In this document: positions 13,240 to 61,221 of the stretch, one piece after another
Layout of the letters: each line of letters begins with the position of its first letter
How positions within the stretch are numbered: position 1 is the stretch's first letter
Sequence record: MT446422.1
DNA: 64,000 nucleotides
Strand: one strand, 5' to 3'
Source of the DNA: Escherichia virus TH57
The notes under the pieces: generated by a model
Database searches by the model: none
What the model was told of the DNA's origin: nothing
The model's input: the letters and a program-made list of their open reading frames with translations, nothing else
Translations under genes and position numbers: made by a program

Positions 13240-13694
13240 TGACATTAAATGAAGTCTCTGAAGGACTTTATGTTGCAGCCAAATTTTCAGAATTAACTCT
13301 TGATGCGCTGGAAAATCTCCAGCGCTCTCTTAAGGTACCTAATCCCGTTCCTCGTGAAAAATTCCATTCCACTATTTGTTATTCCAGAGTAAATATTCCA
13401 TATGTTGTTGCCTCTGGTAGTTTCGAAGTAGCCAACTCTGGTCACCTGGAAGTATGGAAAACTGATGATGGGAGTACCCTGGTTCTTATACTGAATTCAG
13501 ATTATCTTAGTTGCAGACATATGTATGCACGAGCCATTGGCGCAACACATGATTTCCCGGACTATACTCCTCACATAACATTATCTTATAATGTTGGTCC
13601 TTTGACGTATAAAGGAGAAGTCCAGATTCCGGTTGTTTTGGACCGTGAATATAAAGAACCGCTAAAATTAAATTGGTCGGCGGATTTAAAGTAG
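13239..13694 (+). CDS. 57B: gp57B / Acb1-like 2H phosphoesterase (anti-CBASS cyclic-nucleotide phosphodiesterase homolog)
   Basis: 151 aa after 57A; two H-x-T motifs (FHSTI, PHITL) typical of 2H phosphoesterases; T4 57B is Acb1. Confidence 0.7.
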
Positions 13695-13733
13695 TGTACA
13701 AATGAGTGTAGGTGCAGTAATATGTTCCTACAC
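13694..13733 (+). promoter_or_regulatory. early promoter with -10 inside an inverted repeat (PeSL-like)
   Basis: -35 GTGTAC, 18 bp spacer, -10 TAATAT inside GTGTAGG...CCTACAC inverted repeat. Confidence 0.5.
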
Positions 13734-13758
13734 TAACGAATGAACAAACGGAGTTAAA

Positions 13759-14091
13759 ATGAACATCAAGACTTACAACGAGTTTTTAGCCGAATCCGCC
13801 ATCAATGAGACCAAATCAATTGATGATAGTGAAGGCTCTCTGAAATTTGGTTTAACCAAAAATGCAGATGGTGTTTTCTTTCAGATTGGTAATGAACGTT
13901 TTCAAACGTCCAAATATTCCAAAGCTGCAGTTGAAGCTGTCCTGAAATCTGGTGGCAAGTGGAAAGGCAAAGAAGGTACTAAAGAAATTGGTATCGCTGT
14001 TGACGGCGGTATGGCTTATTTTAAAATTGGCGATGAACAATTTATTATGTCTGCTCGCGGACGTAAAGAACTGGCAAAACTTTATAAATAA
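13759..14091 (+). CDS. internal protein (IP) with capsid targeting sequence
   Basis: N-terminus MNIKTYNEFLAES resembles the T4 IP capsid targeting sequence MKTYQEFIAE with an x-E prohead-protease site; PeSL-type promoter upstream. Confidence 0.6.
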   Translation: MNIKTYNEFLAESAINETKSIDDSEGSLKFGLTKNADGVFFQIGNERFQTSKYSKAAVEAVLKSGGKWKGKEGTKEIGIAVDGGMAYFKIGDEQFIMSARGRKELAKLYK

Positions 14092-14099
14092 GGTTTCTT

Positions 14100-14372
14100 A
14101 TGAAAACTTTCAATGAATTTTTCAACGAGTCCCAACTGAATGAAGAAGTAAAAATTAGTAAAGCAGTCAAAGCTATGATTGACAATATCAATCACCTGTA
14201 TAGCATTGACTTGACTGACCATATAACAATTGGTAACAAACGCAACTTTTTCGCGTTTGACATTTCAGAACTTGACCAGAACCAAATTAATAACATTGAG
14301 CGTTTTGCCAATGACAAGGGTCTCCGCCATGAGACAGCTGGTTATAAAAAATATGCAATTTATCTAAAATAG
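14100..14372 (+). CDS. internal protein (IP) with capsid targeting sequence
   Basis: N-terminus MKTFNEFFNES; TATAAATA late-promoter motif upstream at about 14083. Confidence 0.6.
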   Translation: MKTFNEFFNESQLNEEVKISKAVKAMIDNINHLYSIDLTDHITIGNKRNFFAFDISELDQNQINNIERFANDKGLRHETAGYKKYAIYLK

Positions 14373-14380
14373 GATTTCAA

Positions 14381-58172: not shown

Positions 58173-58388
58173 ATGAAGCATGAAATTGAAACATGCGAAC
58201 GCCTTAAAGAAATATATGGACTTTCCCCAACTCAAACTATTTTTGACCTTTCCGAAGAACTTCAAATAGAATTTCAAAAGGAACTCAAGAAATTATTGCA
58301 TCCTGGGCAGAGAGTCTTCCAGGCTATGGTTAGAACTAAAGATGAAAAGGGGAATCCGACCATCGAACGTCGTACAATAGAAATTTAA
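58173..58388 (+). CDS. hypothetical protein between regA and 43
   Basis: ORF track 58161; ATG at 58173. Confidence 0.45.
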   Translation: MKHEIETCERLKEIYGLSPTQTIFDLSEELQIEFQKELKKLLHPGQRVFQAMVRTKDEKGNPTIERRTIEI

Positions 58389-58391
58389 AGC

Positions 58392-58412
58392 AAAGGGACT
58401 TCGGTCCCTTTT
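58392..58412 (+). terminator. hairpin (terminator or gene 43 regulatory structure)
   Basis: AAAGGGAC-TTCG-GTCCCTTT perfect hairpin followed by T-rich sequence and a TATAAT box. Confidence 0.55.
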
Positions 58413-58473
58413 GTAGTATAATAGCGTCAAGTCATAAAACAAAAGTCAATCACTCGACTATAAAGGAAACCAA

Positions 58474-61188
58474 ATGCAAGAATTTTATTTAACTATCGAA
58501 CAAATCGGTGACAATCTGCTTGAACGATACATTGACAAGAACGGTCATGAACGTGTTCGTGAAATCCCTTATGCTCCATGCTTGTTTATGCATGCCCGTG
58601 AAGACCAGGCTGCAAAGTATACAGACATCTATAATAAAGGTTGTGTGAAAAAAGAATTCGATTCCATGCGTGATGCATCCCAGTGGATGAAGCGAATGAA
58701 TGACATGGGTCTCGAAGCTATGGGTATGGATGACTTTAAACTCGCATACTTGTCCGACCGTTACCCGCACGAAATCAAATACGATTCAAGTAAAATCCGT
58801 GTGGCTAACTTCGATATCGAGGTGACATCTCCTGATGGGTTCCCTGAGCCGTCTGAAGCACGTCACCCTATTGATGCCCTGACGCACTATGATTCGGTAG
58901 ACGATAAATTCTATGTCTTTGACCTTTTGAGCTCACCATACGCCACTGTGGAGCAATGGTCTATCGATATTGCTGCTAAGCTGCAAGAAGATGGCGGCGA
59001 TGAAGTCCCCGAAGAAATCCTGGAAAAAATTGTTTATATGGCCTTCGATTCAGAAGAAGAAATGCTCCAGCAGTATTTGGTATTCTGGAACGAGAAAACT
59101 CCGGTTATGTTGACTGGTTGGAACATCGAGAAGTTTGATATTCCATATATCTACAACCGCCTTAAAAATGTGTTTGGTGAAGCTACGGCAAAACGTCTGA
59201 GTCCACATCGTCGTACAAAAGTTAAGGTCATTAACAACGGATTCGGTGAAGAACAAGAAATCATTCAGATTCTGGGTATCTCTGTTCTGGATTATCTGGA
59301 CCTGTATAAAAAGTTCAGCTTCACAAACCAACCATCTTATTCGTTGGATTATGTTGCAGAATCTGAGCTGGGTGTTGGTAAACTCCCGTATGATGGTCCG
59401 ATTTCTAAACTGCGTGAATCAAATCACCAACGGTATATTTCTTATAACATCATCGACGTTTATCGTGTTGTGCAGATTGACCGTAAGCGACAGTTTATTA
59501 ACCTAAGCCAGTCAATGGGTTATTATGCAAAAATGCAGATTCAGTCTGTATTCAGCCCAATCAAAACTTGGGATGCGATTATCTTTAACAGCCTGAAGAC
59601 GCAAAACAAAGTCATTCCGGAAACCAAATCGCATGTTCGCCAATCGTTCCCTGGTGCATTTGTTAAGGAACCGATTCCGAACGCATACAAATACGTTATG
59701 AGCTGTGACTTAACATCTCTGTATCCGAGCATCATCCGACAGATTAACATCAGTCCAGAAACGATTGCCGGGTCATTTGCACCTGCGCCGATGTACGAAT
59801 ACATTGCAGGAACTGCTGACCGTCCATCTGATACATTTAGTTGTGCTCCAAACGGTATGATGTATTTTAAAGATGTTGCGGGTATTATTCCGACAGAAGT
59901 CACCAAGGTGTTTAATCAGCGTAAAGAACACAAAGGCTATATGCTTGCGGCTCAACGTAATGGTGAACTGATTAAGGAAGCTCTGCGTAATCCAGGAACT
60001 GGTACAACCGAGCCTGAAGTTGATTATCGTTATGACTTTGATGACAATATGAAAACAACCTTGCATGGTCTGAATCAAACAGTCCTGAATGGTATGTTGT
60101 ACAAAGCGCAGATGGAAGAAGTTGCTGGTATGACCGCACAGATTAACCGTAAACTGCTTATCAACAGTTGTTATGGTGCTCTGGGTAATATCTGGTTCCG
60201 TTACTTTGACCTGCGAAATGCAACCGCGATTACATCTTTCGGGCAACTTGCATTGCAGTGGATTGAGCGTAAAGTTAACGAATATTTTGATAGTGTTTGT
60301 GGTACAAGTGGTGAAACATATGTATTCTATGGCGATACTGACTCCATTTATATCCAGTGCGATAACCTGATTAAAAAGGTTGGTGGCGAATCTAAATTCC
60401 GCGATACAAACCACCTGGTTGACTTCATGGACAAGTTTGCGAAAGACCGTCTGGAACCAGCAATCGATAAAGCTTTCCGTGAACTAGCTGAATACATGAA
60501 CAACAAACAGCACCTTATGTTTATGGACCGTGAAGCGATTGCATGTCCTCCACTTGGTTCTAAAGGTGTTGGTGGATTCTGGACGGCGAAGAAGCGTTAT
60601 GCTCTGAACGTGTACGATATGGAAGGCACACGATATGCTGTTCCGAAACTGAAAATCATGGGTCTGGAAACTCAAAAGTCGAGCACACCAAAAGCATGTC
60701 AGAAAGCTCTGAAAGAATGTATCCGCCGTATGTTGCAAGAAGGTGAAGAATCTCTGCAGACGTACTTCAAGGAATTCAACAAGGAATTTAATGAGCTTAA
60801 TTACATGACCATCGCAGGTGTATCATCGGTTAACAACATCCAGAAATATAATGAGGGTGGTTTCCCTGGATTTAAGTGTCCGGCTCATATCAAAGGCGTG
60901 CTTGCTTACATGCGTGCAACCAAAGGGCTGAAGACTGTTCCACAAATCATGGAAGGGGAAAAGGTGTATGTGCTTCCTCTTAAAGTTGGTAACCCGTTTG
61001 GCGAAACCGTGATTGCGTGGCCATCAGGGATTGAACTCCCGATTGAAATTCGTGACCAAGTCTTGCAGTGGATGGACTACAACACACTGTTCCAGAAGAC
61101 TTTTGTTAAGCCATTGACAGGGTTCTCTGAAGCAGCTAAGGTTGATTACGAGAAAAAAGCATCTCTTTTTGATATGTTTGACTTTTAA
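58474..61188 (+). CDS. 43: DNA polymerase gp43
   Basis: 904 aa; MQEFYLTIEQIGDNLLERYIDKNG... and VANFDIEVT exonuclease motif match T4 gp43; uninterrupted. Confidence 0.95.
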   Translation: MQEFYLTIEQIGDNLLERYIDKNGHERVREIPYAPCLFMHAREDQAAKYTDIYNKGCVKKEFDSMRDASQWMKRMNDMGLEAMGMDDFKLAYLSDRYPHEIKYDSSKIRVANFDIEVTSPDGFPEPSEARHPIDALTHYDSVDDKFYVFDLLSSPYATVEQWSIDIAAKLQEDGGDEVPEEILEKIVYMAFDSEEEMLQQYLVFWNEKTPVMLTGWNIEKFDIPYIYNRLKNVFGEATAKRLSPHRRTKVKVINNGFGEEQEIIQILGISVLDYLDLYKKFSFTNQPSYSLDYVAESELGVGKLPYDGPISKLRESNHQRYISYNIIDVYRVVQIDRKRQFINLSQSMGYYAKMQIQSVFSPIKTWDAIIFNSLKTQNKVIPETKSHVRQSFPGAFVKEPIPNAYKYVMSCDLTSLYPSIIRQINISPETIAGSFAPAPMYEYIAGTADRPSDTFSCAPNGMMYFKDVAGIIPTEVTKVFNQRKEHKGYMLAAQRNGELIKEALRNPGTGTTEPEVDYRYDFDDNMKTTLHGLNQTVLNGMLYKAQMEEVAGMTAQINRKLLINSCYGALGNIWFRYFDLRNATAITSFGQLALQWIERKVNEYFDSVCGTSGETYVFYGDTDSIYIQCDNLIKKVGGESKFRDTNHLVDFMDKFAKDRLEPAIDKAFRELAEYMNNKQHLMFMDREAIACPPLGSKGVGGFWTAKKRYALNVYDMEGTRYAVPKLKIMGLETQKSSTPKACQKALKECIRRMLQEGEESLQTYFKEFNKEFNELNYMTIAGVSSVNNIQKYNEGGFPGFKCPAHIKGVLAYMRATKGLKTVPQIMEGEKVYVLPLKVGNPFGETVIAWPSGIELPIEIRDQVLQWMDYNTLFQKTFVKPLTGFSEAAKVDYEKKASLFDMFDF

Positions 61189-61190
61189 GT

Positions 61191-61221
61191 GTTTACAACG
61201 GCAAAGGACTGCCGTATGATT
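61191..61221 (+). promoter_or_regulatory. early promoter upstream of the Imm-like gene
   Basis: -35 GTTTAC, 18 bp spacer, -10 TATGAT, followed by type-A-like leader CCATCAACTGATGA. Confidence 0.45.

Follow-up and report, generated by a model that had tools for sequence, protein, structure and literature searches.

Genes and early-promoter cassettes of the window

The window analyzed here, a stretch of 64,000 nucleotides (nt) of Escherichia virus TH57 (MT446422.1), comes from a Gaprivervirus, a T4-type coliphage of the VR7/VR20 kind, and is 93–96% identical to the genomes of TH44, VR20, VR25, VR7 and SP18. Its gene order is that of T4 (57B-ip-tRNA-e-denV-regB-tk-...-43). According to the annotation of VR20 and VR25, the minus strand carries the baseplate genes 7, 6, 5 and 53, and the plus strand carries successively (i) 4, 2, 3, 1, 57A, 57B, the ip cluster, trna.4/.3, two tRNAs and the e.x genes; (ii) nudE, e, denV, further ip genes, vs.x, regB, vs, tk, rI, mobD.x and nrdC.x; (iii) 49, nrdD/G, 55.x, 55, 47, 46, 45, 44, 62 and 43, so that the plus strand from about 10.4 kb onwards corresponds to the early/middle transcription direction of a T4-type genome. 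The elements of interest are short promoter/leader cassettes lying between these plus-strand genes, many of which hold the -10 box inside an inverted repeat, and whose hairpin-forming potential is apparently conserved across T4-like phages.

To obtain a census, every plus-strand intergenic gap was listed, and the -35, the -10, the Shine–Dalgarno (SD) sequence and the ATG were located in each. This yielded 21 early-type cassettes of 50–110 bp, placed between a stop codon and the next start codon and composed of an A/T-rich upstream segment (73% A/T in the 15 nt upstream of the -35 versus 60% in the window), a -35 GTKTAC, a spacer of 17–19 nt, a -10, a short leader and, at the 3' end, an SD with the start codon; the stop codon of the upstream gene usually abuts or overlaps the -35. 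Five MotA-box promoters (38423, 49872, 51470, 54813 and 62162) and a terminator-plus-(-10) arrangement before gene 43 come in addition to these. The pattern GTKTAC-N18-YATAAT occurs nine times in the window, against 0.06 expected, and exclusively on the plus strand, so that the repeated early promoter/leader cassettes announced in a preliminary description of this DNA are real. A looser regular expression for early promoters gave 16 hits on the plus strand and one on the minus strand. A generic TTGACA/TATAAT scan of the window showed no enrichment (63 versus 57.7 expected); the signal is therefore specific to the T4-type -35. Note that one perfect GTTTAC-N18-TATAAT (43151–43180) lies within a coding sequence (open reading frame 43088–43237) and not between genes, and could be either an internal promoter or a match by chance.

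T4 early promoters combine a UP-like A/T tract, a GTTTAC-like -35, a TGn-extended -10 and the -10 itself (Hinton 2010). The window cassettes have the tract, the -35 and the -10; TGn in the correct register occurs only at 48703 and in the MotA-type promoters, and neither in type A nor in type B, the two cassette families that the preliminary description had distinguished. The type B sequence, CATAATGATTCCATACTGAGTTACC, is present at all five sites named for it (17286, 18174, 18701, 37266 and 37854; 0 expected). The type A family, to which eight sites had been assigned, is smaller: its sequence GGGATAGTGTATAATTATCCC is exact at 15319, 17795 and 27690 and has one mismatch each at 14681 (GGGATA/TATCTC, G.U) and 15015 (GAGATA/TATCCC, A.C), but 33721, 47560 and 61191 share the 3' part alone (TATCCCATCAACT / TACTCCATCAACT), lack the 5' arm and do not have their -10 within a repeat. 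Five other inverted repeats exist as described and are longer than claimed, namely 8 bp (13705), 8 bp (19068), 10 bp (24039), 9 bp (26576) and 7 bp (48697). A -35 and a -10 had been attributed to at least 15 sites; among those listed, 19054 has a MotA box in place of the -35, and 48697 has no -35. The site list was also incomplete, since it did not contain the cassettes 27022, 29805 (regB) and 40441, the 8-bp repeat 37838–37845/37863–37870 or the five MotA-box promoters. The 21 cassettes, with z-scores for the folding of read-through RNA, are as follows.

13694–13758, plus strand: early cassette before gene 13759; -35 GTGTAC at 13694, -10 TAATAT at 13718, SD GGAG; repeat AGTGTAGG/CCTACACT at 13705–13712/13727–13734, z = -2.5
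14680–14735, plus strand: type A cassette; -35 ATGTAC, -10 TATAAT at 14704; ip-type gene (MKTYQEF start) downstream; arms TGATGGGATA (14687–14696) and TATCTCATCA (14710–14719) with one G.U
15014–15068, plus strand: type A cassette; -35 GTGTAC, -10 at 15038; ip-type gene downstream; arms TGATGAGATA (15021–15030) and TATCCCATCA (15044–15053) with one A.C mismatch
15303–15361, plus strand: type A cassette before the trna.4 homologue; repeat ATGGGATA/TATCCCAT at 15317–15324/15334–15341; leader end GGAGAATAAAA
17262–17342, plus strand: type B cassette; -10 CATAAT at 17286, no repeat at the -10; GC-rich terminator with T-run at about 17195–17225 upstream
17780–17851, plus strand: hybrid cassette; type A promoter/hairpin (17794–17800/17810–17816) and type B leader ending in GGAGAATAAAA; -35 region AGTGTTTTA also complementary to the SD-adjacent TAAAACACT
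18150–18221, plus strand: type B cassette; -10 CATAAT at 18174; merely a 6-bp repeat, TGGAAT/ATTCCA; crossover partner of the 17780 cassette in those relatives that are without gene 17852–18148
18672–18747, plus strand: type B cassette; -35 GTATAC in the loop of the GC-rich hairpin AGGGGG...CCCCCT (18672–18691); leader end GGAGAATAAAA
19059–19125, plus strand: MotA-box cassette before the e.6 homologue; TGCTTTA 12 nt from -10 TAGTAT (19078); repeat GGGAACAT/ATGTTCCC at 19068–19075/19082–19089
24027–24083, plus strand: early cassette; 10-bp repeat GTGGGACTAT/ATAGTCCCAC (24039–24048/24055–24064), z = -3.3
26561–26616, plus strand: denV cassette; inner repeat TGATAGGGT/ACCCTATCA (26576–26584/26592–26600); outer pairing of TCTCC (26568–26572) with SD GGAGA (26606–26610); z = -6.4
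27022–27069, plus strand: early promoter GTGTAC-N18-TATAAT over the end of denV, before an ip-type gene; no significant inverted repeat
27676–27729, plus strand: type A cassette; 10-bp repeat TGATGGGATA/TATCCCATCA (27686–27695/27705–27714), z = -5.5; extended RNA helix also pairs UGGAG
29805–29867, plus strand: regB cassette; -35 GTGTAC, -10 TATGAT at 29829; -10/discriminator GTTATGATTATCC (29827–29839) complementary to SD and AUG GGAGATAATCATGAC (29852–29866), z = -5.05
33721–33766, plus strand: early promoter; type A 3' half only (TATCCCATCAACTACTGAGGAG); UUCG-loop terminator at about 33688–33712 upstream; no repeat at the -10
37204–37311, plus strand: terminator and type B cassette; C(UUCG)G terminator 37204–37223 with T-run, -35 at 37242, -10 at 37266; leader end GGAGAATAAAA
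37830–37896, plus strand: type B-like cassette; own repeat AGTATGGG/CCCATACT (37838–37845/37863–37870), z = -3.0; leader end GGAGAATAAAA
40441–40496, plus strand: early promoter GTTTAC-N18-TATAAT before the nrdC.4 homologue; no significant inverted repeat
47554–47620, plus strand: cassette with -35 GTGTAC (47560) in the loop of AAAGGGG...CCCCTTT (47554–47575); -10 TATCAT at 47584; 3' half of type A
48697–48759, plus strand: cassette with TGn-extended -10 TGGTATAAT (48703–48711) inside GGGTCAT/ATGACCC (48697–48703/48710–48716), no -35; 5' arm has an alternative pairing with the AUG region
61191–61257, plus strand: early promoter downstream of gene 43; hairpin ACGGCA/TGCCGT (61198–61215) in the spacer, not around the -10

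An inverted repeat around the -10 is conserved as a potential hairpin, not as a sequence

The -10 is enclosed by an inverted repeat of 7–10 bp in 11 of these cassettes, five of which are type A. In a shuffle test of 27 candidate promoters, which randomized 20 nt before and 14 nt after the -10, ten displayed a perfect repeat of 7–10 bp with a shuffle p ≤ 0.016. A repeat of at least 7 bp surrounds four of the eight TATAAT boxes that have a -35, compared to about 2 of 76 (~3%) non-promoter TATAAT, a decoy set that covers both strands and from which two genuine cassettes were removed. The z-scores of the six cassettes for which they are given above, -2.5 to -6.4, were obtained with dinucleotide shuffles. 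When all inverted repeats of 7 bp or more that hold TAnnAT in the loop were counted over the genome, no signal emerged, either by strand or genome-wide, and the analysis was therefore restricted to promoters.

The comparison set comprised nine Gaprivervirus genomes, six IMG/VR loci, 22 kb of T4 and 37 denV-centred loci of diverse T4-like phages; as baits, the protein encoded by 15929–16408 (hyperplastic region) gave 6 loci and denV gave 80, and a scan of IMG/VR with TATAAT-N6-ATCAACTAC returned nearly exclusively chance matches in unrelated contigs. The stems are diverse: seven unrelated ones are found in the window alone and at least 14 when close relatives are included. Depending on the phage, the site before the trna.4 orthologue is taken by one of three different stems (GGGATA/TATCCC, GGGCTnTAG/CTATAGCCC and GGTCTAG/CTAGACC). 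At 24027, the arms form a compensatory series, GTGGGACTAT/ATAGTCCCAC being the form of the window and GTGGGACCAT/ATGGTCCCAC that of four relatives, with a T.G intermediate in five others, i.e. a T-A pair replaced by C-G via T.G. In T4, repeats of 7–13 bp enclose the -10 at ipI, trna.4, e.7, ipIII, ipII and mobD.2. The 231 distinct early promoters of all loci together were grouped into 76 clusters, and in 26 of these clusters (34%) the -10 is enclosed by a perfect repeat of 7 bp or more. Since many unrelated stems occur at one position and compensatory change is seen, it is the hairpin potential that is conserved, not the sequence, and this comparison shows that the -10 hairpin is, among T4-like phages, a target of selection.

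Two adjacent type A cassettes, 14687–14719 and 15021–15053, which lie 334 nt apart, carry one mismatch each at the same stem position but in opposite arms; in relatives, GGGATA/TATCCC is perfect at the two sites. If the partner had the compensated GAGATA/TATCTC, a crossover or conversion tract with its end in the loop would account for this pattern; two independent transitions would do so as well. At 18672–18691 and 47554–47575, the -35 hexamer sits in the 7–8 nt loop of a GC-rich hairpin, which is a second way of nesting a promoter element. At 19054–19078, the window has TTAGTGCTTTAAT, with a perfect MotA box (TGCTTTA), where relatives have a -35 GTGTAC/GTTTAC 18 nt from the -10 TAGTAT; the change, apparently via a small deletion, may have switched an early to a middle promoter with the hairpin retained.

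Sense RNA as the probable level at which the repeat acts

If the repeat acts as RNA, then G.U pairs should be tolerated and the plus strand should fold better than the minus strand. RNA folding lengthens several stems via G.U pairs, for instance to a helix of 12–14 bp with a 5-nt loop in type A, and manual reading of single internal mismatches among orthologues gave about 11 of the G.U type and 3 of the A.C type. The plus-strand RNA is the more stable by 3.5–7.6 kcal/mol at four of the seven independent stems of the window. Among the 26 clusters with a repeat, the plus strand is the more stable in 13 and the minus strand in 4 (Wilcoxon p = 0.02), compared to 15 and 16 for promoters without a repeat. 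As far as sequences can tell, these features favour a structure in the sense RNA without being decisive.

The geometry of the cassettes bears on which RNA would contain the hairpin. Counting from the -10, a conserved ATCAA (or ATACTG) follows after 6 nt in the majority of cassettes, here as well as in relatives and T4, and +1 was placed at that A; the start region reads CCC-ATCAAC or CC-ATACTGAG. Relative to this position, the 3' arm ends between -1 and +4. The arms occupy the spacer and the discriminator, which have no sequence requirement, so that the -10 would fall in the loop. With the start site at or just past the 3' arm, the promoter's own transcript would be devoid of the hairpin, which would be contained in RNA derived from upstream alone. 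The leaders made from the cassettes' own promoters are predicted to be unstructured (0 to -0.9 kcal/mol).

The segment upstream of the start site covaries with the SD region at denV and regB

Two cassettes display a more elaborate pairing. At regB (29805), the -10 and discriminator pair with the SD and AUG, and at denV (26561) the inner hairpin lies within an outer helix, TCTCC/GGAGA. In the lineages compared, the SD region of either gene has its complement in the segment upstream of the start site, and this by way of many different sequences (5' arm / 3' arm; L numbers designate phage loci of the comparison set):

denV, L140: TCTCCTGTAGATG / CATCTACAGGAGA
denV, L146: TTCCTCCAAG / CTTGGAGGAA
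denV, L149: CTCCGTTTG / CAAACGGAG
denV, L161: ATGTCCTCCTA / TAGGAGGACAT
denV, L171: GATGTCTTCC / GGAGGGCATC, two G.U pairs
regB, L149: TCTCCTTTTAG / CTAAAAGGAGA
regB, L147: TTCTCCTCTAGTTG / CAACTAGAGGAGAA
regB, T4: CCTCTTGACTG / CAGTTAAGAGG

MAFFT and RNAalifold gave no consensus structure for the denV and regB leaders, because the arms are out of register between lineages. RNAalifold was replaced by a comparison of cognate and non-cognate duplexes and by an alignment anchored on the CTC/GAG motif. Cognate duplexes are the more stable, with -12.8 versus -8.1 kcal/mol for denV (20 lineages) and -14.2 versus -9.0 kcal/mol for regB (15 lineages), the permutation p being 5e-5 in both cases. In the anchored alignment, the six flanking positions are 79% paired, compared to 51% with permuted partners (p = 5e-5), and several pair types occur at each of them. 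The covariation at denV and regB is thus shown. An effect on translation would follow by analogy with the T4 genes e, soc, 49 and I-TevI, whose ribosome-binding sites are sequestered by a hairpin with a late promoter inside it (Uzan & Miller 2010, PMC3014915). Secondary structure is also known to protect GGAG from RegB, which cuts the SD of its own gene (Uzan & Miller 2010, PMC3014915); read-through regB RNA would therefore be both untranslatable and resistant to RegB.

Masking of the SD/AUG beyond a shuffled-upstream control was significant at 29805, 47554 and 48688 and borderline at 26561, 17262 and 40441. The proposal that all cassettes mask the SD on read-through RNA was rejected by the same control (3 of 24 sites significant, Fisher combined p = 0.11).

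In four jumbo phages (346–378 kb; L158, L160, L162 and L164), the TTGAC -35 of the denV promoter lies in a GC-rich stem-loop, GGTTGACTTCGGTCAGCC, followed by a T-run. Terminator and promoter are combined at these sites in the style of phage RB49, and SD masking was not seen there.

Local hairpins as putative intercistronic insulators

Apart from the 11 cassettes with a hairpin around the -10, six of the 21 have a GC-rich hairpin located before the promoter, across the -35 or within the spacer, regB has its -10/SD pairing and three have none. The GC-rich hairpins at 17.2, 33.7, 37.2 and 58.4 kb resemble intrinsic terminators. None of the 11 cassettes with a -10 hairpin has a GC-rich hairpin in any of these places, compared to four of the ten others, or six of ten if the imperfect terminators at 17.2 and 33.7 kb are included. 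Furthermore, except for 19059, no repeat surrounds the -10 of the MotA middle promoters, i.e. of the five others in the window, and read-through across MotA middle promoters is known to be used (Hinton 2010). From this mutual exclusivity and from the hairpin-free MotA promoters, we infer that each early cassette has one intercistronic hairpin, which would insulate by attenuation or by stabilization of RNA ends, in agreement with the role proposed for the stem-loops of the promoter early stem-loop (PeSL) elements discussed below. Three of the terminator-like hairpins have C(UUCG)G tetraloops (33688–33712, 37204–37230 and 58395–58415), an extra-stable hairpin type of T4 intercistronic regions.

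The leader end as a RegB target, and the internal-protein genes

Six cassettes end in GGAGAATAAAA immediately before the ATG. Its generalized form, GGAGRAYARAA, has six matches in the window (0.32 expected), each ending at the start codon of a cassette gene. In T4, the RegB/S1 target is an 11-nt single-stranded consensus, GGAGAAUAAAA, and a GGAU variant is cleavable when the strict A-rich consensus follows (Durand 2006, PMC1702504). The leader end exactly fits this consensus, and site 18150 has GGGATAATAAA, which corresponds to the GGAU variant. Part of the cassette conservation would thus reflect a functional constraint instead of being a relic of shuffling.

The repeats extend into coding sequence, where ATGAAAACTTATCAAGAATTTATTA encodes MKTYQEFI, which we take to be the capsid-targeting sequence of internal proteins. 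This coding repeat is found at 14736, 15069, 27082, 27410 and 27730, and diverged versions of it lie at 13759 and 14100; all seven genes have MKTYQEFI, MKTFNEFF or MNIKTYNEF at the start or just after an upstream ATG. The gene at 27070 begins MEYKMKTYQEF, and its sequence suggests that the true start may be the second ATG, at 27082.

Recombination at the cassettes

Collinear BLAST alignment of the window with nine Gaprivervirus genomes gave 102 breakpoint coordinates. The preliminary description had proposed that the cassettes mark the boundaries of shuffled gene modules. This proposal is borne out only in part. An indel boundary is present at 11 of 20 cassette junctions and at 35 of 87 junctions between other genes (odds ratio 1.8, p = 0.32), and an enrichment of cassettes at synteny breakpoints is not supported. 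Crossovers inside cassettes do occur, at 17851/18175, in the ip region 14681–15361, at 26543–26585 and at 37198–37242. More specifically, gene 17852–18148 is missing in EAWsc9, TH41 and TH55, with the junction inside the shared CCATACTGAGTTAxCAAATAAA leader in two of these genomes and at the leader/ATG border in the third; the 17851/18175 junction thus has two different crossover points in three relatives. The ip genes between 14381 and 15361 vary between genomes, their junctions lying in a cassette or in the capsid-targeting repeats, and further junctions fall within cassette sequence at 14688–14699, 26555–26561 and 27730–27760. VR20, VR25, TH44 and TH55 carry an ip5 gene as an insertion at the denV cassette, and the insertions of relatives at 37198–37242 fall between terminator and promoter. 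Repeats of the window were sorted into families D1–D7, and direct repeats of 55–73 nt flank single small genes. In conclusion, the repeated cassettes and the adjoining capsid-targeting codons provide homology for adding, removing and swapping small genes, as shown for several sites. The cassettes serve as crossover sites, but do not carry indel boundaries significantly more often than other gene junctions, which tempers the shuffling claim.

A 31-nt direct repeat (94% identical) is found at 17727–17757 and 18621–18651, at the 3' ends of the open reading frames 17343–17768 and 18222–18665. The genes flanking the variable gene 17852–18148 are therefore paralogous at their C-termini, which offers extra homology beside the cassettes.

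A hairpin that would distinguish read-through from promoter-proximal RNA

We consider it probable (about 0.7) that the elements are early-gene regulatory cassettes of Gaprivervirus, in which the -10 hairpin marks read-through RNA and the proximal RNA is open, and which also act as recombination homology. According to this proposal, the inverted repeat would use the freely variable spacer and discriminator and leave the -10 in the loop. It would encode a hairpin in RNA reading through from upstream promoters, as suggested by the unrelated stems at one position, the compensatory changes, the G.U pairs and the strand asymmetry, and this hairpin would set such RNA apart from the promoter-proximal one. 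The arm lying upstream of the start would, at denV and regB and at a few further sites, pair with the SD/AUG, so that the proximal transcripts alone would be translatable and RegB-sensitive. At most sites, the local hairpin would act as an intercistronic insulator that attenuates read-through or stabilizes RNA ends, probably interchangeable with the GC-rich terminators of the hairpin-free cassettes. The make-up of the cassettes, including the SD, GGAG(AATAAAA), that doubles as a predicted single-stranded RegB/S1 target, can be read directly from the sequence.

Several observations weigh against this proposal. About two-thirds of T4-type early promoters have no such repeat, which is therefore unnecessary for promoter function. 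The evidence for RNA over DNA is modest, the strand asymmetry reaching p = 0.02 and three of the seven independent window stems being equally stable on both strands, and the start sites are assumed, at a distance of 7 nt from the -10. The SD is left unmasked by the local hairpins of the sites 13695, 14681, 15015, 15303, 17779, 19054, 24027 and 37830. The terminator scan of the window found no U-tract after the -10 hairpins and scored none as terminator-like, so that attenuation would have to be non-canonical, and, as noted above, the cassettes are not significantly enriched at indel boundaries.

Among other explanations, the one with most to recommend it treats the stem-loops as efficient terminators and the cassettes as portable promoter–terminator linkers for modular shuffling, including mini-circle excision, as in the classical PeSL. 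An RB49 stem-loop cut expression of a downstream lacZ reporter as strongly as rrnB T1, and mini-circles were detected (Arbiol 2010, PMC2839356); in the window, the mutual exclusivity of -10 hairpins and GC-rich terminator-like hairpins suggests equivalent roles, and both the crossovers within cassettes and the 55–73-nt direct repeats around single small genes are in line with shuffling. However, the -10 hairpins are followed by A-rich, not U-rich, sequence, compared to the tested polyG/polyC stems, they are weaker and richer in A/T, the cassette junctions are not significantly enriched for indel boundaries, and the covariation at denV and regB indicates masking of the translation start, not termination. 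This makes termination and shuffling possible but rather unlikely as the main role of the cassettes.

Still less probable is an element acting at the DNA level, be it a cruciform or hairpin that modulates the promoter, an early shut-off device, a substrate for endonuclease VII-type cutting in recombination or the operator of a dimeric protein. The repeat is centred on the -10 of strong promoters with perfect Watson–Crick arms of up to 10–13 bp, the shut-off of T4 early promoters is not fully explained (Hinton 2010), and one RB49 crossover was mapped to the loop (Arbiol 2010, PMC2839356). Against this, the stems are unrelated between sites, which excludes a sequence-specific operator, and the arms are short for cruciform extrusion; DNA pairing predicts neither the excess of G.U-type over A.C-type mismatches nor the more stable plus-strand RNA, and the pairing of the upstream arm with the SD/AUG at denV and regB is an RNA feature. 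That the repeats have no function of their own, being by-products of the duplication and gene conversion undergone by one ancestral cassette, in addition to fortuitous complementarity in A/T-rich DNA, seems highly improbable: types A and B are clearly paralogous copies and type A accounts for five of the 11 hairpin sites of the window, but the counts (seven or more unrelated stems in the window, 26 independent clusters across T4-like phages) contradict it, as do the ~3% background at decoy TATAAT boxes, the compensatory changes and the three stems at one orthologous site.

A general switch at the RNA level, set by the origin of the transcript, may tentatively be envisaged for Tevenvirinae early genes at large: with an early sigma-70 promoter nested in a hairpin, read-through RNA would be masked from ribosomes and RegB (as at denV and regB) or insulated or attenuated (as at the local hairpins), and own-promoter RNA would be open; we regard this wider form as somewhat more likely to be wrong than right. 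If true, it would extend the e/soc/49/I-TevI late-promoter paradigm to about one-third of early promoters and explain why each small early gene keeps its own promoter. The promoter–ribosome-binding-site pairing at denV and regB suggests that, for many small early genes, expression hinges on the promoter from which the RNA originates. For annotation, the cassettes are reliable boundaries of early transcription units in an otherwise unannotated Gaprivervirus region, and they mark likely RegB targets.

Other features of the window

The promoters and the terminator found besides the 21 cassettes are listed below, the MotA box consensus and its 12 ± 1 nt spacing being those of Hinton 2010.

38423–38484, plus strand: MotA-type middle promoter; CGCTTTA, 12 nt, TGGTATAAT; no inverted repeat
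49872–49919, plus strand: MotA-type middle promoter before gene 55; TGCTTTG, 12 nt, TGATATAAT; no inverted repeat
51470–51514, plus strand: MotA-type middle promoter before 47.1/47; TGCTTTA, 12 nt, TAAAAT; no inverted repeat
54813–54846, plus strand: MotA-type middle promoter before 45.2/rpbA; TGCTTTA, 11 nt, TATAAT; no inverted repeat
62162, plus strand: MotA-box promoter, from the census of intergenic gaps
58395–58473, plus strand: UUCG-loop terminator, AAAGGGACTTCGGTCCCTTTT, then directly TAGTATAAT and the gene 43 leader

A spacer motif, AAGGATG, located just upstream of the -10 and often giving TGn, is common to MotA-type promoters and to the early promoter 40441. It lies at 38431–38441, 49880–49890, 51478–51488, 54820–54830 and 40452–40460, in the forms CAAGGATGG, TAAGGATGA, CGGGATGA and CAAGGATGT.

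Two non-coding stretches also deserve mention. The first, 16897–17230, follows the tRNA-Met and tRNA-Arg genes and contains a tRNA-like T-arm sequence, CCGGGTTCGAATCCCGG, with a strong terminator after it; the T-arm sequence is called by neither ARAGORN nor Rfam, the latter matching only the two tRNAs in the whole window. The corresponding region of T4 holds further tRNAs and the small RNAs rnaC and rnaD, and the stretch may be a tRNA remnant or a small RNA. The second, 28030–28190, is a 161-nt G+C-rich spacer between an ip gene and the vs.8 homologue, unusual for a genome with 60% A/T; it gave no Rfam match, its fold is not unusual (z = -0.26), and breakpoints of relatives lie nearby, at 28088 and 28237.

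Comparison with known systems

The preliminary description had identified the cassettes with the PeSLs of T4-like phages. PeSLs were described in RB49/phi1 (Arbiol 2010, PMC2839356) and later extended to PST/T4, with Mot-box versions (Comeau 2014, PMC4122927), and to nt-1/KVP40. The identification is right in kind: as in RB49/phi1, a stop codon in an A/T-rich stretch, a -35, a -10, a stem-loop, an SD and a start codon follow each other, in many copies among small early genes, the stem-loop of RB49/phi1 being mostly in the -35/-10 interval or over the -10, and crossovers make use of the cassettes. The part of the definition that concerns termination is not supported for the -10 hairpins. In addition, the -35 is GTKTAC here, not the near-perfect TTGACA of PeSLs in the strict sense, and the stems are mixed or A/T-rich, not polyG/polyC, with no U-tract. 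As both the -35 and the stem composition differ, the window cassettes are not homologues of the RB49 PeSLs, in line with the view that the T-even elements are analogues, not homologues, of PeSLs (Arbiol 2010, PMC2839356). In the published PeSLs of PST/T4, the stem-loops lie just upstream of the promoter, whereas here they surround the -10.

Likenesses and differences are also found with three other systems. The 19059 cassette, with its MotA box 12 nt from the -10 and a hairpin around the latter, is comparable to the PmSL of nt-1 and to T4 MotA-dependent middle promoters; the other five MotA-type promoters of the window, by contrast, have no hairpin. Like the RegB/S1 targets (Durand 2006, PMC1702504), the six exact matches lie at the starts of cassette genes, and the requirement for a single-stranded target agrees with the predicted lack of structure in the proximal leaders; type A leaders differ in mostly having GGAG without the full A-rich tail, and cleavage is here a prediction from the sequence. 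As in T4 e, soc, 49 and I-TevI, the 5' arm of the SD/AUG-sequestering hairpin at denV and regB lies upstream of the promoter start, so that the long RNA would be masked and the proximal one open. Those T4 genes have late promoters (TATAAATA) and their expression is delayed to late infection, whereas denV and regB have an early sigma-70-type promoter; the T4 reviews, including Uzan & Miller 2010 (PMC3014915), do not give denV, regB or other early-promoter cases, which other literature may hold.

The best fit is provided by the elements of the T-even internal-protein (IP) loci (Repoila et al. 1994), as far as they are summarized in Arbiol 2010 (PMC2839356), where they are called PeSL analogues: they have T4-type early promoters and weaker, A/T-rich stem-loops of variable size. 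In that summary, as here, they flank ip genes beginning with MKTYQEF, and the ip loci are polymorphic, the match being to 13.7–15.4 kb and 27.0–28.0 kb in the window and to ipI/ipII/ipIII in T4. Compared to the loci that the summary covers, the window has the same architecture also at trna.4, e.6, gene 24084, denV, the nrdC.8 homologue 37897 and the 55.2 homologue 48760. This kind of element is thus already known in T4-like phages, which makes the finding largely ordinary; its occurrence in Gaprivervirus is new.

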